A stretch of 64,000 bases of DNA from Pristiophorus japonicus. Its lineage: Eukaryota. The translations under genes and the position numbers were made by a program. The notes beneath the pieces were generated by a model. That model searched no databases and was not told where the DNA came from. It saw only the letters and a list, made by a program, of their open reading frames with translations. Shown piece by piece: positions 11,701-64,000 of the stretch (positions within the stretch are counted from its first letter, which is position 1; each line of letters starts with the position of its first letter). Location of the stretch: NCBI RefSeq assembly GCF_044704955.1, contig NC_091984.1, positions 148,800,001 to 148,864,000 on the forward strand, in the 5' to 3' direction.

Positions 11701-12660
11701 TGTAATATGGCCCTTTTTGTTTTTTGCCTTGGGATTCCCTGCCCTCCACTTTTACTATTCTCCTTTCTATCTTTTGCCTCTGTCTCCTTTTTATTTCCCT
11801 CTGCCTCCCTGCATAGGTTCCCATCCCCCTACCATATTAGTTTAACTCCTCCCCAACAGCACTAGCAAACACTCCCCCTCAGACATTGGTTCTGGTCCTG
11901 CCCAGGTGCAGACCGTCCGATTTGTACTGATCCCACCTCCCCTAGAACCGGTTCTAATGCCCCAGGAATTTGAATCCCTCCCTTCTGCACCACTCCTCAA
12001 GTCACGTATTCATCTGAACTATCCTGTGATTCCTATTCTGACTAGCACGTGGCACTGGTAGCAATCCTGAGATTATTACTTTTGAGGTCCTACTTTTTAA
12101 TTTAGCTCCAACCTCCCTAAATTCGTCTCATAGGATCTCATCCCGTTTTTTACCTATATCGTTGGTATCTATGTGCACCATGACAACTGGCTGTTCACCC
12201 TCCCTTTTCAGAATGTCCTGCACCCGCTCTGAGACATCCTTGACCCTTGCACCAGGGAGGCAACATACCATCCTGGAGTCTCGGTTGCGGCCGCAGAAAC
12301 GTTTATCTATTCCCCTTGTAATTGAATCCCCTATCACAATCGCTCTCCCATTCTTTTTCCTGCCCTCCTGTGCAGCAGAGCCACACACGATGCCATGAAC
12401 TTGGCTGCTGCTGCCCTCCTCTGACGATTCATCCCCCCCAACAGTACCCAAAGCGGTGGATCTGTTTTGCAGGGGGATGACCGCAGGGGAGTCCTGCACT
12501 AGCTTCCTTGCACTACTCTTCCTGTTGGTCACCCATTTACGATCTGGCTGTTTACACTTTACCTGCAGTGAGACCAACTCGCTAAACATGCTATTCACGT
12601 CATTCTCCGCATCGTGCATGCTCCAGAGTGAATCCACCCGCAGCTCCAGTGCCGCCATGC
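8779..12660 (-). mobile_element. Near full-length CR1 LINE (ORF1 SGNH esterase-like C-part, ORF2 APE-RT), mildly degenerate
   Basis: ORF1 AIVIGDSITRG..VCCLPGARVKDV..VHIDTND; ORF2 IMGDFN, SDHNMV, KSPGPD, YLDFQKAFDKVPH, SGVPQGSVLGP, YADE; 3' tail CTAT(G)TTTC repeats. Confidence 0.95.
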
Positions 12661-14358: not shown

Positions 14359-14660
14359 AGCCGGTGCAGCTGCAGGGAGAGAAGGCAAAAAAGAAGTAGA
14401 AAGAAAACGAAAGGTGACATCACAGCCAAGGGGTAAGTGATTGGCTGGTGATTGGTAAGTAGTTTTTCATTCTCTTTTCTTTATCAGTACGTAACATTTA
14501 GCATTGTTGTTGCCAAATTAAGTTTATCTAAGGATTAAGTCATGGCAGGAGAGCTCGGACACGTGTTATGCTCCACCTCTACGATGTGGGAACTCGGGGG
14601 TGCTTCCAGTGTCCCTGACGACTACGTGTGCGGGAAATGTATCTGCCTGCAGATCTTGAC
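14359..14660 (+). mobile_element. CR1 5' UTR and ORF1 N-terminus (inverted 5' part of the 8779-12660 element)
   Basis: ATG 14542 MAGELGHVLCSTSTMWE..DDYVCGKCICLQILT (Zn-finger-like start), breaks at 14660; continuation RMAALELRVDSL begins at ~12661 on minus. Confidence 0.85.
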
Positions 14661-30210: not shown

Positions 30211-31619
30211 TTTTCTCCAATTCAGCTCCACATCTTTGAAACCCAAACCCGCGGACAGTGACGGAAAGGTAAAGACCCTGTGGTCCATCCAGCCCGTCCC
30301 ACACAATTGTGATACCTTGTGTATCACAGTATAGAATCTCCACCTCACCCAAAATTACTTGATCTCCTGGGAGAGGCGAAAAACCAGGGAAAAAACCCAT
30401 TGGGGGGAAATAAATCTGGGAAACTCCTCTCCGACCCCCGCCCCTCCCCCGCAGGCGATGTAAACTAGTCCAGGAGGTCACTGTGGCCCTGAATTCCCTG
30501 CAGTAACTACCTTCTGTAAGTGGTGATCTCCGCACCGGCCACAAATAGGTCCTGCTCTCGCTTATGTACATCTCATGGATTTAAAATTACAAGCTTTCCC
30601 CACAGTGTCAAGTGCTGCAAATACTGTGTTACATTCTCACTGTCTGTCATTGTCACAACACTCGCTATATAAATGCAAGTTGTTGTTGTGTTCAGGGGCC
30701 GCTGTATCTGGCTCAGGCTTCTTATCCATCCCCCCCTTCCCTTCCACCTCCATTGGGGGCCGTGCCTTCAGCTGCCTGGGCCCTAACTCCCTGCTCCCTA
30801 AACCTCTCTGCCACTCCACCCCTCTCCTCTTTTAAGCCCTCCCTTCAAACCCAATCTGTGACTGAGGGTTTTGATCACCCTCCCAGCCCCTCCCCCTTTG
30901 GCTCAGCACCACTTTGACCAGATTACGCCTCTGTCAGCTGCCGCAGGATGTTGTAATAATGTTCTAGTTGCTATAGCAATGCAGGTTGTTGCTGCTGTAC
31001 CTGGCGGCAGAGCATCTCTGTGTGGATATACCCCATGTACCGAGCTCCGTGGTGAGGCCTCCCACAGTGGAATGGCCTGATGATGCTCGCTGCAGAGCGG
31101 AGTGGCTGATGACCCGCCAATCGGTCTGAGACACCGCCTCATGAGCGGACGAGGAGATACACGCTGGGATCCACCATCAAATGACACGAGGGGAACTGGA
31201 AATGATTCTGCAAACCTGACTGGAGGTTTGGTACAAACGGGTTTTACAAACCAATCCATTGAGTGACACAGAAATTGTCCAAAATCTTTGGTCTTTTCAG
31301 AACCAACATCGCCCCCTTTTGGTATGAAAGCAGCACTGCCAATTTCCCTCACAATTTGACTGAGCTGCAATTTTCAATATCTCCTTACGTGGCTCGCTGT
31401 CAACCTTTATTCTATAACGCTCCTGTGAAGCGCTCGGGGAGTTTTACTGTGTTAAAGGTGCTGTATAAAAGTTGCTGTTGTTGTTTGTTCTGAGTTAGCT
31501 GTTCCAACTGAGGTCGGGATATGACTCACAGCTCAGACTGTGCGGCATCCAGTGATGCAATGTTGTATCGTGGGTTCAAGCCCCACTCCAGGGAACTGAG
31601 TGCAAAATAAAGACATACA

Positions 31620-31842
31620 CCACTGTGCAGTCCTGAGGGAGTGCTGCACTGTCAGAGGGGCAGTACTGAGGGAGTGCCGCACTGTCAGAGGGGCAGTACT
31701 GAGGGTGCGCTGCACTGTTGGAGGGGTAGTACTGAGGGAGCGTCGCACTGTCGGAGGGACAGTACTGAGGGAGTGCTGCAGTGTCAGAGGGGCAGTACTG
31801 AGGGAGTGCCGCACTGTCAGAGGGGCAGTACTGAGGGGTGCC
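31620..31842 (+). repeat. 33-bp SINE-derived minisatellite (short, copy A)
   Basis: (GGGGCAGTACTGAGGGAGTGCTGCACTGTCAGA)n, ~6-7 units. Confidence 0.9.
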
Positions 31843-32938
31843 TGTCGGTGGTTTTCTCGGACGTACGAAAAACGCACCTCTTACTACAAGTTCTGGACGA
31901 TAGGGATTACATGGACAGATCAGACTCGGACACATGTTTTTCGGGCTCAACCGTATTGTGTTTGATAAGATTAACAACACCACTCATAAACATTGCAAAA
32001 CAGTACAACCCTGGTTTGTCCAATAAGCCCTGCCGTGCTAAGTTACCACAGCTTAATAAAAGCAACCTCCCGTGAAATAAACTAACAAAGGACCCCCCCC
32101 AGCACTAAACCCCTTAGGGTTTAGGACTTATAATCACCCCCTCACACAGCTAAGTGGTGTTGCGGATGTGTAGACGCAGGCAATATGCTCACCCTGATTG
32201 CCCGTTGTCTTGCTTGCAGCTTCTTCCTGTACGCCTCGCTCCTGGGCTTTTTCCTGGGCTTGTTCCTGAGCTTTTTCCGGAGCTTTTTCCGGAGCTTTCT
32301 TCCTCCTGAGCTGGAGCTTGTTGCAAAGTGGCTCCTTATATCCCCAAAACCCATCACCTTTCCTCCCGCCAATACTGACCGATGGATTGACTCCGGTGAT
32401 CTGTCTGGACCCCCTCTCCCCGTGGCCTGGAGTGGCTCGTAGCCTTTGAAATCTTTGTGAAAGATGATATTTTGTTTTCCCGCTCTCAGGCCTTGCGTCT
32501 GGAGAGACAATGGGTGCTGATTACTGGATGTCTGTCGTTTCCTGAGTTGATGGCCCCCATTAGCAGGTAATGGGTTTCGATCACAAACCGATCTTGCTTA
32601 ACCGGCTTATCTCCTGGAAGACAACGGGCCGGCCATTTCCTGCCTAGCACCAGTTTGGGTTGGGACTGAGTGGTGACTGTGCTTTAATAATGCGAAGGCA
32701 CAGTGTCTCTGAGTTACCTCTCGGGGTATTGTTCCCAGGAATCACTTTAGATGGTGATGACATCAATGGGCCTGGGTTCCCTGCCACCCAGCCTGTCAGT
32801 GTGAAATGTCCGGTTGTATATGAATGCACCTCAGTGCCACCCCCACAAGTTCACCAAACAGGACAGTTCTTTCTTGGCGATTTGGATTTAAGGATTTAAA
32901 ACATTGTTGATAGAATTGGCCAGAAAGCTGGTGCTACA
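31843..32938 (-). mobile_element. Probable solo LTR (~1.1 kb)
   Basis: TGTC...TACA termini; absent from copy B; flanks GTGCC/GTTCC; TATA-like box on minus near 32340. Confidence 0.5.
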
Positions 32939-43439: not shown

Positions 43440-44385
43440 TTCAGCTCAGTCAGCTGTGGCTCAATGGACAGCACACTCACCTCTGAGTCCGAAGGTTGTG
43501 GATTCAAGTCCCACTCCAGAGACTAAGCTCAGAAATCTAGACTGATAGTCCCAGTGCATTACTGAGGGAGTGCTGCACTGTCAGAGGGGCTGTCTTTCAG
43601 GTGAGAGGTTAAACCAAGGCCCTGTCTGCTCTCTCAGGTGGGTGTTAATGATCCCATGCTACTATTTTGAAGAAGAGCAGGGGAGTTCTCCCCGGTGTCC
43701 TGGCCAATATTTATCTTTCAACCAACATCACAAAAACAGATTGGGGATGAAATTGCCCCGCTTTGCACCTGCCGTTAGTGCCTCCGGGGGGTGGTAACGG
43801 GGTGTGACAGTGTTTTCCCCTGGGGCGGGGGGGGCGATGGGAAGGGGGCTACCAGCTCCTGTGGGATTTATCAGAGACGCAAAACAGATAGCGCCCCGTG
43901 AGCTGTGTCCACACAAGGCGTGCGGGTCACGAACCGGGCCGCACTCCCATCGCAGGATGAAACTGACCGGGAGGCGCGCGCCGCCGCACCCCGCCATTTG
44001 TTTTTGCCGACTTACCGGTCGGGCCTTTCTGTGCCGATGTGACGGGGTCGGTGCCGCGATGGTGCAGCCCGACACTCGCCCTCGAGCCCACCCCCAGGGG
44101 AAGTGCAGCGCACCACATTGCGCTCCACTCCCTGTCAGAGGCCGTGACCCCAATTTTGCTTCCGGGGCGGGACTTCGGCGTAGGAAACGTTACCGCCCCA
44201 ACCGGCGCGATATGCAATTTTCGGCCCATTATCATGTCATAGTCACATGTGGGAGCTTGCTGTGCACAAATTTTCTGTCGTGTCTCCTTCATTAGCGCAG
44301 TGACAACACTTCAAAAATACTTCATTGACTGTAAAGTGCTTTGGGATGCCCTGAGGTGGTGAAAGGCGCTATATAAATGCAATTC
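43440..44385 (+). mobile_element. Deu-domain SINE with Harbinger-like MITE (43743-44227; imperfect TIR GGGGATGAAATTG/CAATTTTCGGCCC; TSD ATT)
   Basis: Paralog of 29190-30210. Confidence 0.8.
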
Positions 44386-45682
44386 TTTCTTTCCAATTCA
44401 GCTCGACATCTTTGAAACCCAAACCCGCGGACAGTGACGGACAGGTAAAGACCCTGTGGTCCATCCAACCCGTCCCACACAATTGCAATACCTTGTGTAT
44501 CACAGTATAGACTCTCCACCCCACCCAAAACTACCTGATCTCCTGGGAGAGGTGAAAAACCAGGTAAAAAACCCATTGGGGGAAATAAATCTGGGAAACT
44601 CCTCTCCGACCCCCCCCCCCCCCCGCCCCCGCTCCCCAGGCGATGGAAACTAGTCCAGGAGGTCACTGTGGCCCTGAATTCCCTGCAGTAACTACCTTCT
44701 GTAAGTGGTGATCTCCGCATCGGCCACAAACAGGTCCTGCTCTCGCTTATGTACAGCTCATGAATTTAAAATTACAAACTTTCCCCACAGTGTCAAGTGC
44801 TGCAAATACTGTGTTACATTATCAGGGTTATATTCTCACTGTCTGTCATTGTCACAACACTCGCAATATAAATGCAAGTTGTTGTTGTGTTCAGGGGCCG
44901 CTGTATCTGGCTCAGGCTTCTTATCCATCCCCCCCTTCCCTTCCCCCTCCATTGAGGGCCATGCCTTCAGCTGCCTGGGGCCTAACTCCCTGCTCCCTAA
45001 ACCTCTCTGCCACTCCATCCCTCTTCTCTTTTAAGACCTCCCTTCAAACCCAATCTGTGACTGAGAGTTTTGATCACCCACCCAGCTCCTCCCCCTTTGG
45101 CTCAGCACCACTTGGACCAGATTACACCTCTGTCAGCTGCCTCGGGATGTTGTTCTAATGTTCCAGTTGCTATAGTGTCGAGGAAATATTTAGCTTAAAT
45201 TAACTCAGGCGGAGACTTTCAGAAGTGCACTTCGAGAGAATTTATTTTAAAAAGCGAGATATATCTCGGAGAGCCTGCTTGGACCGTACCAAGGCAAAAA
45301 CTCTGCCGTACAGGCAAATTGTCCCCATCTTTATACAGAAATTAAATACAGAAATATAAAAGGAATCTTATTCATTTGTCCCGCGAGTACAAAGGTCGTC
45401 TCAGGAGGTACACACTCTATCTATCCTTGCATAGTTTCTCTCTGTTCACAGTCTGATAAGTAGAATAAAAGGAGACTCCCTTTTAATACCAGATGGTCAT
45501 TTAATTGCATCTCTAAGTTTCAAGGCTAAAAAAGCATGGCTATGTTTCTAGTCCTATTATTTCTTTAAGCATAGCAAAAACAGAATTTAACCCTTTCCTT
45601 TTCCATAAGCCATAGATTCATAGATCCTTTCTTCCACAATTCCCTCCTTGTTGATCTTTTTATTTTTTAGATCAACACAATT

Positions 45683-47493
45683 TCAATATTCTCTTCTTGA
45701 GCAAAAGGGGTTTATTACTTGACTAATTACATTTTTTAATTTTATCCACATTCCGCAAAGGATTATTAATAATACAAGCATAACCACACCTACGATTACT
45801 ATGGGGTGTATAGCAAGCTTCAGTACTGCTGTAGCTTTTAGGGACCATCCGGTAAACACATCCCACCAGTGGTGTACTGTCAAAGAGGTGACTTCGTCTG
45901 CAATTCTCACTAGTTGCCCCTTCTTGTAACTCATTTCGACTCTAAATTGGTGGATGTCTCTGCCTTGCTTTGACAGAGCTTCCTCAATTTTCTTGTCATT
46001 CCGTATCAAATTGTGCAGTCTGGTCAGATTAATTACAGGGGGTAAGGGTTCAATCTTGTGCATAGACAGATACTTTTCTACATTTTGCCATTGCCCAAAG
46101 GTATAAGTTTTTTTTAACTTCAGGGTCATACAGGGTGTAGACTCTTCTCACGCATTTATTAATGGGGGGTTTATACAAAATTCCATCCAGATAGACAGGT
46201 TTATTTCCTGTCACACAGACCTCATTCTGTCCTATTTCCGTTATATCAGTGTCATTTGTTGGCTTTAATTCCCATTTACATACTCCAATGGCATGCTGCA
46301 GTGAGCATGGTTCGTATATGGCGGTCTGATAGGGACATACCATTCCGAATGGCCACCTAGCACATCCCCTCTGGTGATGTGTCATATTCTTCTCATCGAC
46401 CCAATCTCCTTTAAATTCTGGGTACCAGAAGTTCTGTCCAAACAGTTGGGGCATTACTTGGAACTGACACCAAATTTCTTTTCGTGTCATTCTTACTATT
46501 TCTCCAGTAACGTTACATCCTTTTGAATTACAACTGGTATATCTTTTTTGAGGGCTAATGGTTAAATTAAGAAGCTTATCTCTTTTGTTAATTTCCAGCA
46601 ACCTTTCCCATGTGTTAGCATGGAAGGATAATATTTTCCTTTCTAACTCGGCTCTTAATAGCTGTCTGATCATTTCTTTAAACAGGCAATGGGTGTACTT
46701 GTTACTCCCTGTTGTTCCTTTATTAGGTTCTCTATTTCCTTCTCTACCCTTTCATTCTGTTCCCAGGTCATTTCGTTTATGACGTAACCTGATATTTGTA
46801 ATTGCTGTAATCCTTCATCCCAGGCATTTCTGATTTTTATATCTTCCCCTACCAGTCCTCCGACGGCCTGGATTTTATTTTGTAGGGTCTCGATATCCAT
46901 GGAGTTCAATGCTCCTATTCCTGCTCCCACTCCACCTAACACAGTCTCTAATACATCCCGTTTCTTTCTTTGGGGTCTTTCTTTTTCAAAAGATACTTTA
47001 ACACTGGTTGTGTGGCAACCATCTTCTTTCTTTGGGGGATATTCACCGGGGTGTTATTCATGCACAACATCCGCTGCCCTTCTACCATACTTGTAAATGA
47101 ATAATGGAGGAAGTCTTTTCTCTCGTCCGGCCCTCCTATGTACCCCCATCTCTTGTTTTTCCCTGTGCTCCCGGTACACTTCATCCACACATCGGCCTGG
47201 TATTCTATGAACAACTGATACCCTTTCCCCAATATAAATTGGAACTCCCCTCTTTCTTCCTTCATTCCACATGCCTCACATCGTGCCGTAAAATTCCCTA
47301 CCTTACAACTTTGGCCTACTGGGCATATAAAATTGCCTTGCTGCCTCATACTATTACTTCTTTCCCATACCATATTTCCCTTCCATACTCTTCCTTCTTT
47401 TAGGACTTCTTCCTCCTGCCGGGAGTTCCCTGTCGCTAAAATGATCAGTATACCTAATGTCCATTTATAATTTTTCCAAGAGTCCCTTCCCAT
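45683..47493 (-). pseudogene. env: ERV env, frameshifted; short SU, RKKR furin site (46958-46969), long TM subunit
   Basis: Signal peptide WTLGILIILATG; RKKR|DVLETVLGGVGAGIGALNSMDIETL; Cys-rich ectodomain; HHWWDVFTGWS..HPIVIVGVVMLVLLIILCG anchor. Confidence 0.9.
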
Positions 47494-47620
47494 CTTCCCT
47501 TTCTTGTTTGTTTCTATACCACTCTTGAATTAAGTCGTTACAATAACAACACGTCCACACGATAGTAACAGTGGCCCAAATAATAAAGGCCCAAACTGGC
47601 ACACAAATGAGCTCTGACAT
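47465..47620 (-). CDS. Small single-pass membrane ORF (51 aa) between pol and env, overlapping env start
   Basis: MSELICVPVWAFIIWATVTIVWTCCYCNDLIQEWYRNKQEREDGKGLLEKL; ATG start, intact. Confidence 0.5.
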   Translation of the reverse strand: MSELICVPVWAFIIWATVTIVWTCCYCNDLIQEWYRNKQEREDGKGLLEKL

Positions 47621-50600
47621 CTGTCCGTGAATTTTGGGCAATATTTTCAAGTCCAAATATTTAATACAAGAGCAGGTACAGTTCTTTCAGCGAGAAGATG
47701 GCTGTTTTCTTAGTCGGGCGACCGTAGTATGTCCTGGTTCAATACCTTTTTCTTCGGCTGTAATTCGTCGGGGAAATGATATTTACAGCGGATTGCATGC
47801 ACCCAGTTCGGGTGCTTTTCCAACTTCAAAGCGGATCGTGTTGTGACAATTATCTGATACGGTCCTTTCCACCAAGGAGAAAAGGATTCTTTATTTAATG
47901 TTTTTACTAACACTTGATCTCCAGGTCTGAAAGGGTGCATATTTCCTTCCAAAGGGGCACCTGTGTCTGCTTTATTTGTTCATGCAGACTTCTTGTTATT
48001 TCACACATGGCCTGAGCATACTTTAGTGATTTTTCATCATTCCAACTTAATGCTATTTTTTCATCTGCCAGTGGTGATTTTACGCCAGTAGGCATTGGTC
48101 TTCCCAATAAGGCTTCATGTGGTGTCAAACCAGTGTTTCGGTTTTTCTGGTTTCTCATTGTATACAATACTAATGGTAAGGCTTCTGGCCACTTCAGTCC
48201 AGTCTCCTGACATACCTTGGTAAGGGTAGATTTTATTATCCCATTTACTCTTTCTACCATTCCCGAGGACTGTGGCTGATATGGTATATGTAACTTCCAC
48301 AGGAAACCTAACGCTTCTGCAAGGTTTTGCACTATTTTTCCGGTGAAGTGGGTTCCCCTGTCACTGTTGATTCCCATAGGTATCCCATATCTTGGTACTG
48401 TTTCTTTAAATAGAATTTTTACTACTGTTCGGGCATCGTCTTTCCTAGTGGCTTGCGCTTCTACTCACCTTGTGAACATGTCTATTATGACTAATAGGTA
48501 CTTAAGACCTGATACTGGAGGCATGTTGACAAAGTCAATTTGCAAATTTTCAAAGGGCATACTTGGCTGGGGTAGATGATCATATCCAGCAGGTGTTTTA
48601 CTTCTGTTATTTTGTTGACAAATTTGGCATGTTCTAGCAACTTTCTCAATTACTACTGTTATTCCTGGTGCATACCACTGTGCATTAATAGCATGTATCA
48701 TCCCTCCTTTGCCCATGTGAGCCTGACCGTGTGCTAGGCGAGACAGGGGCAAAAATAGAGATCTAGGGCAAACAGTTCGCCCATCAGGGTGATACCAAAT
48801 GTCGTTTTTTAGAAAACAACCCTGGTTTTCCCAAGTTCTTCCTTCCTGCATGGTAACTTGTTGTTGGGCTGTTTTAAGTTGTTGGATGTCAAGTACCTGT
48901 GGAGGGGAGACTGAGACTGCTTGAAGGCAGTCTGCCTGTGCCGAAGCGGCCTGTTTGGCTGCCTCGTCAACCCTCCTATTTCCTACTGATACTTCATCCT
49001 CACCAGTTGTGTGAGCTGCACATTTGATGAAGGCTACCTTACTTGGCAACTGAATGGCATCTAATAGATTAAGCACCAGTTGAGAGTGCTTAATATGCTT
49101 TCCACCAGAGGTGATAAAGCCTCTGTTTTTCCACAGTTGTCCAAAATCATGGACCACACCGAATGCATATCTAGAATCAGTATAGATATTAGCAGTTTGA
49201 TCTTTAGCTATTATACAAGCTCTAGTGAGGGCAAACAATTCAGCAGCCTGAGCCGAGGTTCCGGGAGGCAGGGCGAATGCTTCAACAGTTTCGTGGGGAT
49301 TTACAATAGCATAGCCTGCCAACAGCAAGTCATCCGATGGCCTGTACGATGATCCATCCGTATAGAGAATAAGATCTGGATTGTCCATGGGCTCTGTGAG
49401 CAAATCTGGTCTTGGTAAGGTGGCTATTTCGACCGTTAACAGACAATCATGCTGGTCTGGATCCTCTATTCTTTAGTAGGAAGAAAGGTGGCTGGGTTCA
49501 CTACCGGTGCGCGTCGAAAGGTATAGTTAGGGTGTGACAGCAGTAATACTTCATAACCTGTTCTTCTAGACGCTGTAAAGTGTTGTGTGGCAGCTGAATT
49601 CAAAAGTAATAACACAGCATGGGCGGTAATGACAGCACATAGATAATCCAAAACAATAGGTGCCGACTTCTCCACCATGACTGCAGTAGCAGCTACAGCA
49701 CGTAGACATGCTGGCATTCCCCTTACTACTGGAGGCAGCAAAACCGAATAATAAGCAACTGGTCTATTTCCCCCACCATGTTCGTGGGTTAGTACTGCTG
49801 TTGCAAATCCTTCTTTCTCATTCACATACATCTGAAAAGGTTTACCATAATTCGGAAGTCCCAACGCCAGAGCATTAGTAATGGCTTTCTTTAACTGTTT
49901 AAATGCCTCCTCTTTCTCTGGGGTCCACTCCACCTTGGGTGGGGCATCATTTAGGGCAGCTGATCTTAGGACCGCATCCCATTCTCGATTCTTTCTGGTC
50001 CTAGCTGCCTCTGCCCTTGAGATATGTGAAAACCCAGGTACTGGACTTGAGTCTGACAAAATTGTAACTTTTGTAACGACACTCGGTGCCCTCTTTCACA
50101 TAGGTGCTGTAGCAGTTTCAGGGAATCTTGCATGCACCTATATCCGTGGCTAGAAGCCACAAGCAAATCCTTGGGGCAACCTGGTCCATGTGTACTGCTG
50201 CTTCTTGTGGGTGAAAGCAAACAGATACTGACTTTCTTGATTTAACGGAATAGAGAAAAAAGCTGAACACAGGTCTATTACAGTAAAGACAGTTGCTGTT
50301 GGTGGTATAGCAGATAGTATAATGTTGGTGTCCGGTACCACAGGGGTGATAGGGACTACTATCTTATTAATAGCTCTCAGATCTTGCACAAATCTCCATT
50401 CCTACAATCATCGGACCCATATCTTTAGGTTTCGCTGGCGGTTTTACAGCCAATGTCAGATGGGGTGTCGAGTTCGCTTCTCTAAACCGCTGCTGCTGTA
50501 AGGGTGTCAAATCGATGGCTACCCCCAATCCTTCTGGTCCAAAATAAATGCGGGGCGTAGCTTCTACTATTTCTTCTCTATTTAAAAAGGATTGTACCAG

Positions 50601-50983
50601 ACACTGGTAAGTTTCAGCTTTTTGTCGAGTGTACCAGGCTGTACAGTGAAGCTGAACTGCCTCAAAGCTTGTCAAAATTATATACATCAATTCTTCAGTA
50701 TTAGAGTCAAATTTAGCTTTTAAGTTTTGTATAACTTCATGTATCAAGGGGGAATAGAAGTTGCCATTCAATTGCCAACAATAGAGGGCAGCCTTTTCTT
50801 TGTTATCCTCCCTTTTCTCTTCTTTAATCCCATTAAAAAACTGATGGATTTTATTTGGAGGGAGCTCCATGAACATTCCTTCCTTTGTGCAATAAATTGT
50901 GGCTCCTAGTTTGCACAAAGTCTGTCTTCCCAATAAAGGGAGAGGTGTTGTTTTAGAGACTATCAAAGTCTCATCATTAACTG

Positions 50984-53900
50984 TGTTGTAGGAGGTAGGC
51001 ACCTTTAGAATATACCAGAATACTAGGCATTAGGCACCTGCTAGATATATCTAAACGCATATAAGTTTAAAGTGGCCACACATAAAATGGCTGCCCAGGC
51101 ATGATGGGAAATCAGGTAGTCAAGCTGTGAACTGTTGAATGTTCAATGACCGAGCAATAACCCTGTGAGGCCCACTATAGGAATGCCTTGGATGCAGGAT
51201 AAGAATAATGAGGAGAGAACCCATCTCCCATATTCAAGGCCATAAACCAATTAATTCCCCAGGAAGAAAGAGATAAGAGAACCCATCTCCTGTAAACAAG
51301 GTTAGAAACCAATTATTTCTCCAAGAAGAAAGAACTAGTGAGAGAACCTATATCAATCAGCCCAAGCTGACAAAAGACGAACACATGGTTCCTGAGACAT
51401 AAGGGGAATTCTATTGGGTTAAAATAACCTATATGTAATCTATAATCATTGTGATTGGCTTGTGTCCAGCCGTGATGGGCTGTGTAGCTGTAGTAAACTG
51501 TTTTGTAACTGTTGTGAAACATATAAAGGTGCATGTAATCCTTTGTTCTGTGAAGAGAAACCTGGATACGGTCCTGAGTTTTTCCTTCCCGCTGAGCGTA
51601 ATAAAAGCTGCTTCAGCATTGGAGCCGACCCTGAGTGTTGAGTGATTCTTCTAAGAAAACACTAACGCTAACAATGGCGTAGTCGACGGGATTTCCCGGA
51701 GTCGCTGGACGCCCTTGGAAAAAACCCGGGTGAGTATAAAAAACAATTTTTAAGTATAAAGGGTGCGGAAGGTGGAAGCTGGTTGATCGACATGAGGAGA
51801 CGGTCTAATATCTCAAACGCCTAGCCTGAGCCTGAATTAAGAGGACTTTTGTCCCACGTGACGGCCAGGAACCAAGTAGGCGTAGGGAACACACTTAGAC
51901 CGTGGGATCGTGATACCGAGAGACATCTTCCGGACCCAGTAGTGTAATTTGAAATACCCCGGGATAGAACCAAGCGGTGTACAGCGGCTAACGGAATCCA
52001 AACCTGTGAACAGGGTCGGACCAACAGGCTGAGCGGTGGTAGGTAGTCGTTAAGGATACGTAGAGCACTGCGGGAATTGCTTAAACGCGTTTTTAAGAAT
52101 TGTATAAGTTTGTGCAACAGCAGAACTTGTGACCTGACAGTAGCCAAGAGACAGTTTACTACAAGTCGCGCTAGAAAGAAAGCGGACCTCTGAGAGTAGA
52201 TTCCTAACGGTAGTAGTCCTACCCAGGAATGGCCATGAAAACAAGTAAACTCGAGTGGGGACCAGAAGGGTCGCTTACCCGCCACCTGGCGGAAAAACAA
52301 AAGAAGCTAATTGAAAAAAATGATTAAAGCAGGGTGGAATCCTCAGGAATTAGTTATGTGAGGAATTATTTAAATAAAACTACGAATTCCCTGAAAGGTC
52401 ATGGATCCAAAAATAGAGCCGGCCAAAACAAGAAGAGAGACTGTTGTAAATGTCTGATCGTTGAGTGAGAAGTGTCTGTGTGATTTTTGACTGCAGAATG
52501 AATTTTTTTATGTTTTCATGTTCCGAAAGTCTGGTTGGAAGAGGAATGCAAGTGTCTGTTTATTTTAGAAACAGAGTGAAAGTCTTTTTTTAAACCCTTT
52601 GTAATGTTGTCCTGTATGTGGGAAGTTTTAAGACATTTAAGTTAGAAACGCAGGTGTGGATTTATTCGGATGATAAGTTACGGAGCTAGGAAAATAAACA
52701 AATAAAGAATAGGTTTGTTGAGCAAAATATTTATTTGACATGCTCACTTACTTGCCGAAAGAAAACATGCAATGATTGATTGGGCTGAAAGACATAAATT
52801 TAGTCTCGGAGTGAGATAAAGAATGCTTTAAAAAAAAAGAGCTTCTAAAAAAAAAAGTTTTAAATAAAGATTGAAATTACAAAGTTTGAATTGGGATTTT
52901 GAGATATTCAGAGAAGGCACAGGAAATACTGAGGTGGATTTAAAAAAAAAGAAAAAGATTAAATTAAATCTGATCAGGTCAAACTCCTGGGCAAGTGGCG
53001 AGCTATCTGCGAAGGTGTAAAAGGAACTTTTGGAAAATGTTAAAAAAAAAAACAGCAAGCTTTAGTAACGACTTTGAAACTGGAGCATTTTGAGATAACG
53101 AAAAAGCACTCAAACTCTCAAAGATGGACTTCATTCCAGTTATGGAGAAAAAGAAAAAGATAAAGACGCCACTTTGAAAGTAAACAAATGATTTTAAATT
53201 AACAACTTTATGGAGTTACGAACCCTCCGTGTAAAATACAAAACCTAATTTGAAGAAAGGAAAAAAAGATGTAACGGACTAAATGGAAAAAGACATAACT
53301 TACTAAATACTAGTTGATGTTTGCTGTGAAAAAGATATTGGTTTAATTAGAAGAGGAAAAAAAAAATTGGAATAAGTAAAAAACACTCTACATGGATTCG
53401 AATTTTCAATTATGAAAAAGTTTCAATGCAGTTTGAAAAGATTTCCAAAATGGACAGTGTTTATCAAAAATGTCCCGAACAGTCTAAACAAGCAGGAGGG
53501 TTTTGAAGATAACGAGGAGAAAGAGAGAAATAAAAAAAAACAGAATTGAATTTCAGTAAACAAAATTGCTATTGTATGTGTGGTCTTGTTTTAAAACAAT
53601 TTAAAAAAAAAATTCTTTGGCAAGTACTTGAATTAGAAGTTAAGAAAACATTGGAGTTTACTCTAATGATTTATGCTGTTTTTAACGGATTCCTAATTTC
53701 GAAGCCAGTTTTGAAGGCACAAAGACTTTTTTTCAGATGATTACGTGAAATCACGTAATGACATCAGGTCTTCTTACAAACCTGTAAAGGAGTTAACCCT
53801 TTCCATTGACAGCCGTGTTATACTGAACATTATTAATTTGGATTTCTTAATAGGAAAAAAAAAGACTCACCTAACAGAGGAAACAAAAAATAAAAACAGA

Positions 53901-56900
53901 ACTAGCTTATGTAATAATGCTTGCCTGATACAATAAAGAAATAGATATTCAATAAAACAAATTGAAGAGTTAAAAGCTAAGATAAACAGGCTGGAAGAGA
54001 TAACAGGACTAGACGGATAGTGCAGTGCGCAGCCATAGCACCATCACCTCTGGCAATAGAGCCAATGTACCCCACGGTGGGTAGGTGTAGTCCACAAACC
54101 CAACCTAACGGTAAAGCAGACAGCGATGTTTGGAGGAATAGCTTTGGCCTTGGTCATATGAGTTTGGGTAATATTTAAGTGGGTAAAGACACGGGCGCAC
54201 GCCCTACAGATTCAGCTCGAAATGGTTCGATTATAACCTTGTGCTTCTGATTTTGCAGGGTGACAGGGACACTCGTAGAGCAAAAAACTTAACCCCTGGT
54301 GACGACCAGGCCGTCTGTTTAAAATTACAGATAATACTTACCGGAATGGGAATACGAACGGCGCTACTCGTAATATGGATAGCCCTGTGACATACACGAA
54401 CCCTGGGCAACACCGACGGACAGCAGAGCACGCTGGAAATAAACAATTACATGAACTATGGAGTGTTGTTCAATTTGACGGACGGAATATGTGTTCCAGC
54501 GACTAAGGATTGGAGCAAGGACAGAACTTATTTTAATGCATGGTTACAAGTGAATCCTAATAAGGACCGGGTATGTGTACAGTGCTCCACGGGTATAAGG
54601 AGCAGCTGCATTAAACGGAGGGATGTCAAAGGGCCCGATGAATGTACTTTCGGCATAATTTGTGCGCCTCCGGGACAATCCCAGCAATCAGTCATCCGCA
54701 AGAAGGGAATGGGGCTGTGTGGGTATTACGAGGAGGCGGGAGTGGCTGCAATATCATTGTATGTATGTTTCTCACCCCCTCCAACACCGCGCCCCATAAG
54801 AATCACTACATTGCCCGAGGAACTGCCTTGCCCCATAACTACGAAGGGACCAGAGAATGGGATTGTAATGTACAGCGAGGGGGAACTGTTGTATGATAAT
54901 GTTAGACATGAAATTGTGCCTGTTCTGATCAATATTTCAGGCATCCAGATGCTGGAATACTGTACAGAACAGTCAAGGAAGATGTACAATGTATTAAGTA
55001 AAGTTGTCATGCAGCAGGCTGCCGATGCAATGTGTGCCAGTAGGTTCCGGGGACAGGGGTTAGCCCCAGGATGAAGAGGGAAGTAGTTAATGATGTTGCT
55101 ACCGTTTTCAATACAGAGACCTCCGTAGTGAACTCGATAGACATACAAGGATTAAATGAGAGGGTGGAGCAAAACCAGGAAGACCAGGCCAACCTAGGAA
55201 AGGAGGGTGCCAAAATCCAGTTGGATGGCATCTCAGTCCTGGAAGCTCACGCTAAAACCATCAATCACCTCATTGATAGAGAACAATAAAGCAAAGACAG
55301 GGGCAACTCTGTCATGCTTATGGTCTGTGGATGGTGGGACAGATCCGCCACAACCTCGACCAGATCCAACGCGGGGAAGTACCCGATTGGATAGACAGTT
55401 CACATTTAGCTCAGTTGGCGAACCAAAGGGGGACACTGGATAATTGTACTCTGAAGGGACTGACCCGAGTATACCCCGCAATTCCAGATTGCCAGATGGG
55501 TAGGACTACCGGGATAGGGATAGTCCTGTTGATCCCTATAGCAACGCCGGACTCAGGGCCGTTCCCCTTATACCAACTAGAGAATATCGGAGTAATACGG
55601 GAAAATGTCTCCATACGCTACTACCTGACCACCACCTCTGCCGTTCGTCGAAACAACATACTTACTGGGATTTCCCTAGCAGATTGCAAGCAAAGGGGGG
55701 GAAATCACAGTATGCCCTCACCCGATGGGCCGAGGTGAACTAGACGAGTGCGGGTTTAACCGAACCAACGGGTGTGTACTAGAAATAGTGCCCGCACACA
55801 TGCACTTCGCGAGGGCAGGCTACGGAGGGAGGGGAAGATACTGCGTCTCTACCACAGAGCGTTCATACCAGTATAATGACCTGCAGTGCCCTATACCGCA
55901 GCCAAACTTTTGCTTTACACCACGACGACCTGTCGCGATCGGGCAAGCGCATATCACACAAGTTAGGCGCCGGAAGTCCGAAGTTATTGAAGTAACTGAT
56001 CAGCTCCATGATCATTTGCAGGATTATGACGAGCCAGAGCAGGTCCCTATCCCACATCTCACGGAGGTATTACGGGAGTTAAGGCTCAGAGTGGGGCAAT
56101 CCGTAAAACTCTATCACCAGCTACAAACTAAAATCAAAGAACTGGAAGAAGATACCGAGGTAGACTTACAAAGTCAGAGTTGGTGGAGAAAGGTCTGGGA
56201 CTGGGGAATAAATGTGAACATCCACCCATGGATCCGAATTATTTCACACACACTGGTCGGTATACAATTGATCTTAGCAATAACATGGGGCGTAATGGCC
56301 TGCCAGGCATGCAGACACCACGCACAACGAAGACGGACAAATCACCGTTCCCTGGATACTAAACAAGCCTGTTTTATAAGGGGGCAGGAGGATTTGGCCT
56401 TTGTCAATTCGATTTAAGCAACCGGGACTCCTGAAACTGCGTGACTGGCCAGCACGTTGAGGCAGGGAGTACCGGGCCGTGCACAAAATCTAATAAAGGT
56501 CGAATGATCGGTTAAAAGGGGACTAGGACTAGTCCCTTTACCGAAAGGGGGAGTTGTTGTAGGAGGTAGGCACCTTTAGAATATACCAGAATACTAGGCA
56601 TTAGGCACCTGCTAGATATATCTAAACGCATATAAGTTTAAAGTGGCCACACATAAAATGGCTGCCCAGGCATGATGGGAAATCAGGTAGTCAAGCTGTG
56701 AACTGTTGAATGTTCAATGACCGAGCAATAACCCTGTGAGGCCCACTATAGGAATGCCTTGGATGCAGGATAAGAATAATGAGGAGAGAACCCATCTCCC
56801 ATATTCAAGGCCATAAACCAATTAATTCCCCAGGAAGAAAGAGATAAGAGAACCCATCTCCTGTAAACAAGGTTAGAAACCAATTATTTCTCCAAGAAGA

Positions 56901-57244
56901 AAGAACTAGTGAGAGAACCTATATCAATCAGCCCAAGCTGACAAAAGACGAACACATGGTTCCTGAGACATAAGGGGAATTCTATTGGGTTAAAATAACC
57001 TATATGTAATCTATAATCATTGTGATTGGCTTGTGTCCAGCCGTGATGGGCTGTGTAGCTGTAGTAAACTGTTTTGTAACTGTTGTGAAACATATAAAGG
57101 TGCATGTAATCCTTTGTTCTGTGAAGAGAAACCTGGATACGGTCCTGAGTTTTTCCTTCCCGCTGAGCGTAATAAAAGCTGCTTCAGCATTGGAGCCGAC
57201 CCTGAGTGTTGAGTGATTCTTCTAAGAAAACACTAACGCTAACA
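50984..57244 (+). mobile_element. Nested pol-less LTR element carrying a degenerate F-like env
   Basis: 690-bp LTRs 50984-51673 and 56555-57244 (identical by eye), TSD ACTG, PBS TGGCGTAGTCGACGGGAT at 51675, PPT GAAAGGGGGAG ~56543-56553. Confidence 0.95.
54346..56417 (+). pseudogene. env: env-like class I fusion glycoprotein gene, disrupted
   Basis: Signal MGIRTALLVIWIAL (TGA at 54388), RMKR cleavage ~55068-55079, NSIDIQGL heptads, Cys spacing like paramyxo F1, coiled coil, WW..HP, TM helix; at least 4 lesions. Confidence 0.8.
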
Positions 57245-57504
57245 ACTGGTTGTCCTTCAATTATCAATTTGGTAGGTTCAGATAAAAATTCTTTCATGGG
57301 AATACCGGCCACACCCATACTTAAGACGGTGGTGTTGCTTACAGGTAATCCCACAGAGGATGGTACAGAAGACATAGTAGCACCAGTATCCACCAGGAAT
57401 TTCACATAAGTGTCTCCTACTTTTACTACTGCCAGAGGGTTTTCTTCTATGGCTGCTGATAAGTGGAGGGCTGCCGCCTGTACCACTAAGCCTCCGGGGC
57501 ATCC

Positions 57505-60434
57505 CTATGCTGATTATTCTGTGCCTGTCCTTTTTTTTACTTTGAAGGTATGAGGCGTGAATTCGCTAGGATAGATTGGCGAATGATACTTAAGGGGTTG
57601 ACTGTGGATGGGCAATGGCAGACATTTAGAGACCGCATGGATGAACTACAACAATTGTACATCCCTGTCTGGTGCAAAAATAAAAAAGGGAAGGTGGCTC
57701 AACCGTGGCTATCAAGCGAAATCAGAGATAGTATTAAAGCCAAGGAAGTGGCATACAAATTGCCAGAAATAGCAGTGAACCCGGAGAATGGGAGAAATTT
57801 AGAACTCAGCAGAGGAGGACAAAGGGTTTGATTAGGGCAGGCAAAATAGAACACGAGAGGAAGCTTGCAGGGAACATTAAGATGGACTGCAAAAGTTTCT
57901 ATAGGCATGTAAAGAGAAAAAGGTTAGTAAAGACAAACGTAGGTCCCCTGCAGTCAGAATCAGGGGAAGTCATAATGGGGAACAAAGAAATGGCAGACCA
58001 ATTGAACAAGTACTTTGGTTCGGTATTCACTAAGGAGGACACAAACAACCTTCCGGATATAAAAGGGGTCAGAGTGTCTAGTAAGAAGGAGGAACTGAGG
58101 GAAATCCTTATTAGTCAGGAAATTGTGTTAGGGAAATTAATGGGATCGTAGGCCGATAAATCCCCAGGGCCTGATGGACTGCATCCCAGAGTACTTAAGG
58201 AGGTAGCCTTGGAAATAGCGGATGCATTGACAGTCATTTTCCAACATTCCATAGACTCTGGATCAGTTCCTATGGAGTGGTGGGTAGCCAATGTAACCCC
58301 ATTTTTAAAAAAAGGAGGGAGAGAGAAAACATCGGTAGTGGGGAAAATGATGGAATCAATTATTAAGGATGTCATAGCAGCGCATTTGGAAAGAGGTGAC
58401 ATGATAGGTCCAAGTCAGCATGGATTTGTGAAAGGGAAATCATGCTTGACAAATCTTCTGGAATTTTTTGAGGATGTTTCCAGTAGAGTGGACAAGGGAG
58501 AACCAGTTGATGTGGTGTATTTGGACTTTCAGAAGTCTTTCGACAAGGTCCTACACAAGAGATTAATGTGCAAAGTTAAAGCACATAGGATTGGGGGTAG
58601 TGTGCTGACGTGAATTGAGAACTGGTTGGCAGACAGGAAGCAAAGAGTAGGAGTAAATGGGTACTTTTCAGAATGGCAGGCAGTGACTAGTGGGGTACCG
58701 CAAGGTTCTGTGCTGAAGCCCCAGCTGTTTACATTGTACATTAATGATTTAGATGAGGGGATTAAATGTAGTATCTCCAAATTTGCGGATGATACTAAGT
58801 TGGGTGGCAGTGTGAGCTGCGAGAAGGATGCTATGAGGCTGCAGAGTGACTTGGATAGATTAGGTGAGGGGGCAAATGCACGGCAGATGAAGTATAATGT
58901 GGATAAATGTGAGGTTATCCACTTTGGTGGTAAAAACAGAGAGACAGACTATTATCTGAATGGTGACAGATTAGGAAAAGGGGAGGTGCAACGAGACCTG
59001 GGTGTCATGGTACATCAGTCATTGAAGGTTGGCATACAGGTACAGCAGGCGGTTAAGAAAGCAAATGGCATGTTGGCCTTCATAGCGAGGGGATTTGAGT
59101 ACAGGGGCAGGGAGGTGTTGCTACAATTGTACAGGGCCTTGGTGAGGCCACACCTGGAGTATTGTGTACAGTTTTGGTCTCCTAACTTGAGGAAGGACAT
59201 TCTTGCTATTGAGGGAATGCAGCGAAGGTTCGCCAGACTGATTCCCGGGATGGCGGGACTGACATATCAAGAAAGATTGGATCAATTGGGCTTGTCTTCA
59301 CTGGAGTTCAGAAGAATGAGAGGGGATCTCATAGAAACGTTTAAGATTCTGATGGGTTTAGACAGATTAGATGCAGGAAGAATGTTCCCAATGTTGGGGA
59401 AGTCCAGAACCAGTGGTCACAGTCTAAGGTTAAGGGGCAAGCCATTTAGGACTGATATGAGGAGAATCTTCTTCACCCAGAGACTGGTGAACCTGTGGAA
59501 TTCTCTACCACAGAAAGTTGTTGAGGCCAATTCACTAAATATATTCAAAAAGGAGTTAGATGTAGTCCTTACTACTAGGGGGATCAAGGGGTATGGCGAG
59601 AAAGCAGGAATGGGGTACTGAAGTTGCATGTTCAGCCATGAACTCATTGAATGGCGGTGCAGGCTCGAAGGGCTGAATGGCCTACTCCTGCACCTATTTT
59701 CTATGTTTCTATGTTTTGCTGATAGTACTTACCTGCTGTTTTAGCCTTATTTTCCTTATAGGTAAATAGTCCCTCTCTATCCATGTTAGCCAGTACTGTA
59801 ACTGTCTCTTTCCAACTTTTTCCTTGCCAGTCAAAAACCTTTATTTTGTATGTTCTTGCGTGTTGTGGCAACATACAATTTAACAAGGTTTGCACTGCCA
59901 AAGGTTCATCTTTTACCCCTTGCCAAGAGGACCCATATGCTGCCTGCAGTAATAATTTCACATCTCCGGGGAGGGGGTTATAAATGGTACAGGTTTGCTC
60001 AAGCCAGTTGTGAAAGGCTACTGGCTTCTTAACAGGATTAGGGGCGGCTGATATTGTTTTTTAAAACAATTCTCCATATAATCTTTATCCCAAGTGGGGA
60101 CCCCTGTCCCATTTTTGGTGGTCTGTCTCCATTCCTCAATTAAGGACAATTTAAAACTTCCTCCATATGGCCAATCCCCATCAGACCAACCGTACAAATC
60201 TCTACTAAATGTTACCGCGTATCTGTCGTCTCCTGTTTCTTTAATTACAGTGTCCGCCGGCGAGCTGGGCAGCACAATGGGATCTCCTACGTTCTCTTGT
60301 TGCTTTACTACCTTACTGATTTTTTTCTCAGTCTTAGGATGTACTTTCATTCTTTCAGTTGAGAGGTCGTCCTTCTTTCCTTTTCTAGGAGCTGGGTGCG
60401 AGCGCCCTGCTCGACTAGAGCCGTTTCCCATTCT
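57505..60434 (-). pseudogene. gag: ERV gag remnant (interrupted by CR1), amber junction with pro
   Basis: MGNGSS myristoylation-type start, WPYGGSF matrix motif; TAG GGA at 57507-57502 in frame with protease. Confidence 0.7.
57538..59714 (+). mobile_element. 5'-truncated CR1 inserted in ERV gag; same subfamily as 8779-12660
   Basis: MRREFARIDWRMILKG.. through RT to CTATGTTTCTATGTTT tail; peptides near-identical to 9521-10921 ORF. Confidence 0.95.
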
Positions 60435-60746
60435 TCCGGGTGCAACGTCTCGCGATCTTTTCTGAAATGAGAGTTGGGACAATCCTACAAAATATACAAT
60501 AATTTACAAAGCGCTCACCGGTGTTCTCTTTTCTGCTCAGCTCGGGGTCTCCTTTTGCCTTTTTGTTATTTTAGCTTCTTTGCCGTAGCTATCTTATGCC
60601 TCACCCCCTAGGGGATCTCGGCGGCCCGTCCCCCTTTCAGCTAGGACGGCCTAGGCACCTTCCTTCTTTTAGCTAGGAAGGTCCTTAAAATTCCTCTTTT
60701 CTCTTTAAAAGTTAAATTTAGTTCTTTTGGATCTCGTTTTTTAGAG

Positions 60747-60765
60747 ATCCTGCCGGACTACGCCA
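60747..60765 (-). promoter_or_regulatory. Primer binding site, tRNA-Ser
   Basis: TGGCGTAGTCCGGCAGGAT vs tRNA-Ser complement TGGCGTAGTCGGCAGGAT. Confidence 0.85.
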
Positions 60766-62239
60766 GAATCTGTCGAGGAAATATTTAGCTTAAATTAACT
60801 CAGGCGGAGACTTTCAGAAGTGCACTTCGAGAGAATTTATTTTAAAAAGCGAGATATATCTCGGAGAGCCTGCTTGGACCGTACCAAGGCAAAAACTCTG
60901 CCGTACAGGCAAATTGTCCCCATCTTTATACAGAAATTGAATACAGAAATATAAAAGGAATCTTATTCATTAGTCCCGCGAGTATAAAGGTCGTCTCGGG
61001 AGGTGCACACTCTATCTATCCTTGCATAGTTTCTCTCTGTTCACAGTCTGATAAGCAGAATAAAAGGAGACTCCCTTTTAATACCAGATGGTCATTTAAT
61101 TTCATCTCTAAGTTTCAAGGCTAAAAAAGCGTGGCTATTTTTCTAGTCCTATTATTTCTTTAAGCATAGCAAAAACAGAATTTAACCCTTCCCTTTTCCA
61201 TAAGCCATAGATTCATAGATTCTTTCTTTCACATATAGCAATGCAGGTTGTTGCTGCTGTACCTGGAGGCTGGGCGTCACTGTGTGGATATACCCCGTGC
61301 ACCGAGTTCCGCAGTGAGGCCTCCCACAGTGGAATGGCCTGCCGATGCTCACTGCAGTGCGGAGTGGCTGCTGATCCGCCAATCGGTCTGAGACACCGCC
61401 TCACGAGCGGACAAGGAGATACACGCTGAGATCCACCATCAAATGGCACGTGGGGAACTGGAAATGATTCTGCAAATCTGACTGGAGGTTTGGTACAAAC
61501 GGCTTTTACAAACCAATCAATTGATTGACAAAGAAATTGTCTTTGTGAAACTTTGAAAATTGCAGCTCAATCAAATTGTGAGGGAAACTGGCAGTGATGT
61601 CTTCATACCAAAAGGGGGCGATGTTGGTTGCGAAAAGACCAAACTTAATGAACAAATCCCAGAAGCTGGGCAGAAGGGATTGGCTCCCGGTTAAGCAACG
61701 CCTCCGCTTCAAAATTTTCATCCTTGTTTTCAAATCCCTCCATGGACTCGCCCCTCCCTATCTCTGTTAGCTCCTCTAGTCCTAAAGCCCTCCGCCCCCC
61801 CGATACCTCGATGCTTTCCAATTCTGGCCTTTTGTAGATTGACGATTATAACCATTGGTGGCCGTGCCTTCAGCTGCCGAGGCCCTATAGTCTGGAATTC
61901 TCCCCCTAAATCTTTCCGCCACTCTAGCTTTCACTGCTTCTTCAGCACACTCCTTCAAACTCATCCCTTTGATCAAGCTTTCGCTCATCTATCCAAAAGT
62001 CTCCTGACATGGCTCGCTGTCAATCTTTGTTGTATAACGTTCCTGTGAAGCGCTCGGGGAGTTTTACTGTGTTAAAGGTGCTGTATAAAAGTTGCTGTTG
62101 TTGTTTGTTCTGAGTTAGCTGATCCAACTGAGGTCGGGATATGACTCACAGCTCAGACTGTGCGGCATCCAGTGATGCAATGTTGTATCGTGGGTTCAAG
62201 CCCCACTCCAGGGACCTGAGTGTAAAATAAAGGCATACA

Positions 62240-64000
62240 CTACTGTGCAGTCCTGAGGGAGTGCTGCCCTGTCAGAGGGGCAGTACTGAGGGAGTGCCAC
62301 ACTGTCAGAGGAGCAGTACTGAGGGAGTGCCGCACTGTCAGAGGGGCAGAACTGAGAGAGTGCTGCACTGTCAAAGGGGCAGTACTGAGGGAGTGCTGCA
62401 CAGTCGGAGGGGTAGTACTGACGGAGGGCTGCACTGTCAGAGGGGCTGTGCTGAGGGTGTGCTGTACTGTCAGAGCAGCATTACTGTGGGAGTGTTGCAC
62501 TGTCGGAGGGGCAGTACTGAGGGAACACTGCACAGTCGGAGGGTCAATACTGAGGCAGTGCTGCACATTCGAAGGGGAGGTACTGAGGGAGTGCTGCAAT
62601 GTCGGAGGGGCAGCACTGAGGTAGTGCTGCACTGTCGGAGGGGCAGTACTGAGGGAGCGCTGCACTGTGGGAGGGGTAGTCCTGAGGGAGTGCTGCACCG
62701 TCGGAGGGGTTGTACTGAGGGCTTGCCGCACTGTCGGAGGGGCAGTACTGAGTGAGTACTGCACTGTCAGAATGACAGTACTGAGGGAGCGCCGCACTTT
62801 CAGATGGGCAGTACTGAGGGAGTGCTGCACTGTCAGAGGAGTAGTACTGAGGGAGTGCTGCACTGTCAGAGGGGCAGTACTGAGTGAGCACTGCAGTGTC
62901 GGAGGGGCAGTACTGAGGGAGTGCTGTACTGTCGGAGGGGCAATGCTGAGGGAGTGCTGTACTGTCAGAGGGGCATTACTGAGGGAGTGCCGCAATATTA
63001 GAGAGACAGTACTATGGAGCAACGCACTGTCGGAGGGGCTGTACTGAGGGAGTGCTGCACTGTCGGAGGGCAGTACTGAGGGAGTGCCGCAATGTCAGAG
63101 CGGCAGTACTGAGGGAGTGCTGCACTGTCGGACCGGCAAACAGAGCGAGTGTGGCACTGTCAGAAGGGCAGTACTGAGGGAGTGCCACACTGTCGGAATG
63201 ACAGTACTGAGGGAGAGCTGCACTGTCGGAGGGCAGTACTGAGGGAGTGCCACACTGACGGAGGGGCAGTACTGAAGAATTGCTGCACTGTCGGAGGGGC
63301 AGTAATGAGGGAGTGCCGCACTGTCAGAGAGGCAGTACTGAGGGAGTGCCGCACTGTCGGAGGGTAGCAGTACTGAGGGAGTGCTGCACTGTCAGAGGGG
63401 CAGTACTGAGGGAGTGCCGCACTGTCGGAGGGGTAGTTCTGAGGGTGCACTGCACTGTCGGAGGGGCAGTACTGAGGTTGTGCTGCTCTGTTGGAGGGGC
63501 AGTACTCTTGGAGCGCTGTACTGTCGAAGGGGCAGTACTGAGGGAGTGCAGCCATGTTGGAGGGGCAGTGCTGAGAGAGTGCTGCCCTCTCGGAGGGGCA
63601 GTAGTGAGGGAGTGCCGCACTGTCAGAGGGGCAAATCTGAGGTCGTGACGCTCTGTCAGAGGGGCAGCACTGAGAGAGTGCAGCACTGTCGGAGGGGCAG
63701 TACTGAGTGAGTGCTGCACTGTCGGAGCGGCATTACTGAGGGAGTGCCGCACTGTCGGTAGGGAAGTACTAAGGGAGTGCCGCACTGTCGGAGGGGTTGT
63801 ACTGAGGGAGTGCCGTACTGTCGGAGGGGTAGTACTAAGGGTGTACTGCACAGTCAGAGGAGCAGTGCTGAGGGAGTGCTGCACTGTCAGAGAGGAAGGA
63901 CTGAGGGAGTGCTGCACTGTCAGAGGGGCAGTACTGAGGGAGTGCTGCACTGTCAGAGGGGTAGTACTGAGGGAGCGCTGCACAGTCAGAGGAGCAGTGC
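62240..64000 (+). repeat. 33-bp SINE-derived minisatellite (long, copy B; runs off window)
   Basis: 11-aa periodicity (TVQHSLSTAPL) in ORF track; >50 units. Confidence 0.95.

Follow-up and report, generated by a model that had tools for sequence, protein, structure and literature searches.

Nested insertions at the locus

The window (the whole 64,000-nt stretch of DNA that was analysed; all coordinates are positions within it) contains a minus-strand endogenous retrovirus (ERV), hereafter the host ERV, which is interrupted by a plus-strand LTR element, hereafter the inner element (50984-57244, 6,261 bp; Table 1). The host ERV is flanked by a 5-bp target duplication, TATAG, and its two LTRs differ at 12 of 463 sites (2.6%). 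It holds MLV-like protease, RT connection, RNase H and integrase pieces with numerous stops and frame changes; these pol pieces match Pfam RVP, RT_RNaseH, RNase_H and rve and are closest to MLV/XMRV. The RNase H matched MLV/XMRV at E 4e-37 compared to 4e-7 for foamy viruses and, judged by similarity rather than from a tree, does not group with the foamy viruses as that of a lokiretrovirus would. A LINE-like repeat, presumably CR1, separates the host gag from the protease, so that the host carries two nested insertions at most 300 bp apart. Elsewhere in the window, long tandem arrays with units of 23, 33, 34 and 69 bp were observed at 4600-8300, 12500-14500, 31500-31950 and 62150-64000.

The inner element is located in the host protease region. 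The right protease piece matches Pfam RVP (E 2.6e-5), and the two flanking pieces share a reading register, which by arithmetic alone agrees with the initial annotation that removal of the insertion restores the protease frame. The 690-bp LTRs, described there as identical, showed 0 differences on alignment, the exact match extending one further base by chance. The ACTG duplication was also confirmed, since a 4-bp reading fits and readings of 3, 5 and 6 bp fail. The primer-binding site (PBS) begins one base past the 5' LTR and the polypurine tract (PPT) stops one base short of the 3' LTR. The inner element thus has the two LTRs, PBS, PPT and target-site duplication that are expected of a non-autonomous ERV, and it carries the cis signals for LTR replication together with a clean integrase-type footprint. 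Within the LTR, 51214-51354 contains an internal direct repeat of ~79 bp (78% identity), and joints in two public sequencing runs (X5 and X6, see below) indicate LTR variants without parts of this region.

Table 1. Features of the inner element and of the ERV that contains it (window coordinates).
Feature	Position	Strand	Remark
Left copy of 4-bp target-site duplication (ACTG)	50980..50983	.	
5' LTR, 690 bp, TG...CA	50984..51673	+	TATA-like motif 51522, AATAAA 51600
Primer-binding site, tRNA-Ser-like	51675..51692	+	first 10 bases are those of the host PBS
Leader	51693..52316	+	splice-donor-like motif 51730; 51994-52041 resembles the P0015 N-terminus (env model from Pristiophorus)
A-rich central segment	52300..54000	+	all frames with stops; gag/pol unrecognisable; repeated family-wide
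Broken env, shark F-type family	54331..56417	+	ATG 54346, final stop 56415
Polypurine tract	56543..56553	+	
3' LTR	56555..57244	+	same sequence as 5' LTR
Right copy of 4-bp target-site duplication (ACTG)	57245..57248	.	
Host ERV	45176..61233	-	LTRs 45176-45638 and 60771-61233; 5-bp duplication
Second insertion in host, LINE-like repeat	57530..59725	+	other copies in window; edges approximate

The A-rich middle and the envelope gene

The inner element had been described as lacking a recognisable pol. Consistent with this, a Pfam search of all six frames of 51674-54375 returned no family at E<=1, and of 15 shorter plus-strand interior pieces only one matched, to an unrelated family (E 0.037), with no gag or pol among them. 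Together with the stops in all frames, these searches indicate that no functional gag or pol is present, as in other non-autonomous ERVs. The A-rich degenerate region of ~1.7 kb was likewise recovered: 52300-54000 is 40.6% A and 11.8% C, and contains 10 A-runs of at least 7 bases compared to 1.8 on average, and at most 7, over 2,000 shuffles. The frequency of stops in all of its frames is about that predicted from composition. The segment had no match elsewhere in the window, and Rfam gave 0 matches at E<=1 over 44000-62000.

The env gene was reported to be broken, and comparison with its relatives revealed five lesions: one stop (54388-54390), three frame changes (near 55053-55068, 55286 and 55695) and a gap of 14 residues in the first heptad repeat, near 55165. 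Between the breaks the gene is well preserved, with 54322-55068 being 85% identical to P0015 over 249 residues and the C-terminal piece 65-68% identical to Mustelus asterias proteins. The inner env has an end branch of 0.06 in an 18-row tree, placing it close to intact relatives, while the middle of the element is unrecognisable. Further env relatives were found in Chiloscyllium, Heterodontus, Heptranchias, Pristiophorus, a skate and, distantly, frogs; none was confirmed in the viral contigs and metagenome contigs searched. This set of relatives suggests that the window comes from a cartilaginous fish. P0015 is itself shortened (398 aa). It starts with 16 residues that resemble the leader of the inner element, a match that is weak on its own (E 0.003). 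Such a leader-like start joined to env would be consistent with an env mRNA from which the A-rich segment is spliced out as an intron, or with a deletion in that copy. An intact shark relative, P0002, has 714 aa, and its cluster holds contigs of 9,139 and 8,984 nt. In another member of this intact set from sharks, P0004, a stretch ahead of env resembles an integrase tail by eye; it has no Pfam match, and its similarity to the host integrase tail is weak (E 0.15).

Sequence searches with the env pieces and P0002 gave nothing informative in Pfam and a best E of 0.015 in a PDB profile search. The top PDB fold matches of the predicted P0002 model (mean pLDDT 58) were the F proteins of hPIV3, RSV and henipavirus (best E 1.2e-8), although the TM-scores against paramyxovirus and pneumovirus F were at most 0.28 by query. 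The nearest retroviral matches, at ranks 5 and 6 of a fold search against viral proteins, were the Envs of the walleye epsilonretroviruses WEHV1 and WDSV (E 1.7e-11 and 7.8e-10), with low TM-scores of 0.15-0.26 for this model. The Atlas neighbours of P0002 were Fusion_gly and Baculo_F, at low recognition. On the predicted model, the shark family to which the inner env belongs has a fold resembling that of paramyxovirus F, and P0002, a relative of the inner env, has the Mononegavirales-F-related Env that characterises lokiretroviruses. These results point to an uncharacterised F-type family in sharks, rays and frogs for which Pfam has no model.

The host ERV has an env of its own near 45700-47500 (minus strand), a distant F-type protein that matches frog proteins best (E about 1e-7, 16-kb target); in the host, an MLV-like pol is accompanied by this remote relative of the F-type envs. 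An F-like Env has been put forward as a feature of lokiretroviruses (PMC7947760), and the walleye epsilonretrovirus fold matches suggest that its distribution is wider. Four shark gene models (P0040, P0041, P0054 and P0058) fuse pieces of the env family to Niban-like, FBXO15, cadherin-like and caspase-domain proteins; these are either exonisation or annotation artefacts.

Copies of the family and age of the insertion

Part of the interior was found in eight public runs, seven of organism A and one of organism B, and the contigs of four of them (X1, X5, X6 and X8) were placed on 49984-56554 (6,571 bp). X1, a DNA run, may derive from the sample that the window came from and is not independent of it, X8 is the organism B run, and X5 and X6 are of unrecorded kind. 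None of the eight runs is recorded as RNA. Every bin (30/30), the A-rich ones included, was covered in all four runs. X1 contributed 24,892 placed contigs, with 7,906 at least 99% alike, 9,124 at 95-99%, 6,079 at 90-95% and 1,783 under 90%. The median X1 depths, which like all contig depths here are summed figures and not copy numbers, were 211,678 for the A-rich segment, 237,471 for env, 305,447 for the LTR and 31,849 for the host flank. The ratio of A-rich to env depth was 0.89 in X1 and 0.68 in X8, and 0.29 and 0.33 in X5 and X6, the runs of unrecorded kind; env depth was 7.5 (X1) and 23.7 (X8) times that of the host. The PPT-to-LTR joint was present in two of the four runs, and none of the contigs listed contained a leader-to-env joint or bridged the host-LTR junction. 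The linkage of all parts of the element in other copies is read from the even cover, as none of the listed contigs spans the whole interior. This even cover, in X1 and X8, speaks for a pol-less layout as the prevailing form in both organisms and, in terms of depth rather than copy number, for the defective form being multi-copy. The proposal of a non-autonomous family, as opposed to a one-off deletion, was therefore upheld.

Other contigs revealed further variation. In an 827-nt contig from organism B, only the part from letter 450 onwards fits 54160-54540; the 449 letters upstream are different, and relatives with a different upstream segment therefore exist. Host-family contigs in X5 and X8 fit up to 50982 with letters left over, as expected of copies free of the insertion. 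Across 51084-51963 the X1 depth is flat, whereas that of X5 is 22,132 and 15,297 in the two initial LTR bins and drops to 1,710 and 199 beyond the AATAAA at 51600. The drop would be consistent with polyadenylated transcripts that terminate in the LTR, for a run whose kind is unrecorded and a contig depth that cannot rank parts.

Two statements of the initial annotation fared less well. The lesions were said to predate the integration, yet the stop-making letter at 54388 was absent from every placed contig in the four runs, and X1 depth at 55284 was 62 compared to 235,208 for its bin, so that the break near 55285 is rare or private. With both the stop and this break looking private to the present copy, support for older lesions is weak. 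At 55063 and 55695 contigs show the window's length and another one, in shares that are unreliable because contigs ending within the base run cannot show a length difference. Separate env deletions occur in other copies, seen as joints at 55285-55404 (X1 and X5), 55963-56068 (X1) and 55957-56049 (X5). Around the stop, three differences within 12 bases (54388-54399) are missing from all or nearly all placed contigs of the four runs; clustered mutation, recombination with a rare copy and local assembly error are alternative explanations. Within the unbroken env frames, 11 of 23 family variants, taken among the best 40 of 636, were synonymous compared to 31% expected (P 0.07). The 23, from which two variant rows at env breaks were left out, may include the helper's own env. 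This excess hints that env may not be fully neutral.

The second statement was that identical LTRs imply a very recent integration. Zero differences in 690 bp give a 95% bound on divergence of 0.43%, which equals 2.2 My at 1e-9 per year and 22-31 My at 1e-10 to 7e-11 per year. The lower rates derive from the mutation rate of the epaulette shark, 7e-10 per generation (PMC10587355), and assume a generation of 7-10 years. Since about 2 to 31 My are allowed at shark rates, 'very recent' is not established, and the case warns against reading much about age from identical LTRs where genomes mutate slowly. The probability of zero differences at the host's LTR divergence is 1.7e-8, so the inner copy is far younger than the host ERV, although in years it need not be recent.

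Probable replication in trans and comparison with known elements

The inner element is probably one copy of a high-copy non-autonomous shark ERV family that is replicated in trans by an intact relative, and the enzymes of such a relative are the most likely means by which the family moves. An ancestor of ~9 kb would have lost its gag-pol block or exchanged it for the non-coding A-rich segment, after which the RNA would be packaged, reverse-transcribed and integrated by proteins of the intact relative. This helper would have a compatible LTR and a 4-bp integrase, and would not be the host ERV. The A-rich middle may drift freely, while env may have been more recently acquired from the intact relative or kept in cis, and would now be decaying copy by copy. 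Leads towards trans replication are the intact envs of ~700 residues in the cluster with the 9,139- and 8,984-nt contigs, the integrase-like tail of P0004 and the 827-nt organism B contig. Searches of viral and metagenome contigs and with the integrase tail recovered no pol-bearing element with the inner LTR, and none of 24 candidates paired a pol with the P0004 tail, which is weak evidence.

Could the host ERV family itself be the helper, using the same primer tRNA? Both PBSs presumably correspond to tRNA-Ser. As the initial annotation had observed, the primer site is shared, although only the first 10 bases are the same and later ones differ, and both envs, though only distantly related, belong to a single broad family (tblastn E about 1e-5 to 1e-7 with a 16-kb target). 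Against this, the PBS lies 1 base from the LTR in the inner element and 5 bases in the host, nucleotide and tblastx comparison of the two elements gave no match, and the LTRs are unrelated, with 62 of 200 shuffles scoring as well (host LTR ends being set within one to three bases). Target duplication length is nearly invariant for a given virus, XMRV giving 4 bp at 13 of 15 sites and 5 bp at one (PMC2857682). The different duplication lengths (4 and 5 bp) and the unrelated LTRs make the host family a most improbable helper and, together with the distantly related envs, make the suggested use of different integrases likely. A one-off deletion from an ordinary autonomous ERV family is just as hard to sustain and is largely refuted. 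It would account for the intact env relatives and ~9-kb contigs in other sharks and for the private lesions, but not for an A-rich depth that approaches env depth in both X1 and organism B.

An old copy with LTRs equalised by gene conversion or assembly collapse, and an interior that decayed in place, is an unlikely reading. The window letter is the X1 majority at all three listed LTR sites, and if the integration preceded all of some 33 interior differences (estimated from a word share of 0.81), the LTRs would have stayed identical with P 9e-5 in the absence of conversion. With the nine private differences the value is P 0.08. These private letters occur at 9 of 36 listed interior sites at which at least 93% of X1 depth differs from the window, and polishing to the majority would have erased them. 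As they were kept, and as the host LTRs on the same contig remain 2.6% apart, assembly collapse of the LTRs is unlikely; gene conversion is possible. The A-rich middle, being family-wide, did not decay here. Also doubtful is a division of labour, in which the pol-less, env-bearing family is kept, in more than one shark species, because gag-pol partners without env obtain an F-type envelope from some of its copies and copy the family in turn. A working envelope would then be made from a spliced leader-env mRNA, and the inner copy would be a dead member. This reading draws on the leader-like start of P0015 (weak alone), the excess of synonymous variants, the short env branch and the two private lesions. 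It is opposed by the env deletions of other copies in X1 and X5, by the shortened P0015, and by the origin of the 23 variants among the best 40 of 636, possibly with helper env included.

By analogy, a family replicated in trans would repeat what is already documented in cattle, koala and mouse. In the cattle ERVK[2-1-LTR] D-type, koala RecKoRV and mouse ETn, the central segment has been swapped for other sequence, a piece of an older retroelement, with the LTRs and the flanking gag and env portions kept, and these non-autonomous ERVs without working genes are mobilised in trans (PMC10924933). A similar pattern may be seen here, as the middle is unrecognisable in Pfam and one contig diverges upstream of 54160. 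The sizes are also comparable: the D-type has ~6.8 kb and its competent form ~10 kb, and the inner element has 6.3 kb compared to perhaps 9 kb. For the mammalian elements a competent partner was identified and mobilisation demonstrated (PMC10924933), whereas in the shark, with another retroviral lineage and host, mobilisation is inferred from sequence. The zebrafish BHIKHARI families Bik-1 and Bik-2 are likewise single-gene non-autonomous LTR families in fish and are young; they keep an intact gag and have lost pol and env, in contrast to the inner element, which keeps a broken env and has lost gag and pol (10.1101/2024.03.25.586437). The present family would thus add cartilaginous fish to the mammals and zebrafish with trans-mobilised defective ERVs, here with env retained and gag-pol dropped, and apparently at high abundance (interior depth 7.5 times that of the host ERV in X1). 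No description of the family was found among the papers listed in literature searches; the repeat libraries Repbase and Dfam lay outside that search and may contain it.

The env family resembles that of the lokiretroviruses, whose Env has a signal peptide, an RxKR site, a fusion peptide, a coiled coil and similarity to paramyxovirus and pneumovirus F (PMC7947760). Lokiretroviruses are, however, defined by RT phylogeny, and the label was not assigned to the inner element, which has no RT. In a term search, the text of PMC7947760 gave no mention of cartilaginous fish. F-type envs also occur in invertebrate errantiviruses (10.1101/2023.10.26.564294). Epsilon-like ERV lineages have been reported in the elephant shark (PMC4977317); the walleye Env fold matches, at low TM-scores, are a point in common with such class I ERVs, from which the inner element differs in having no pol for placement. 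The many copies of the family make it computationally testable whether env is kept by selection or carried along in cis.
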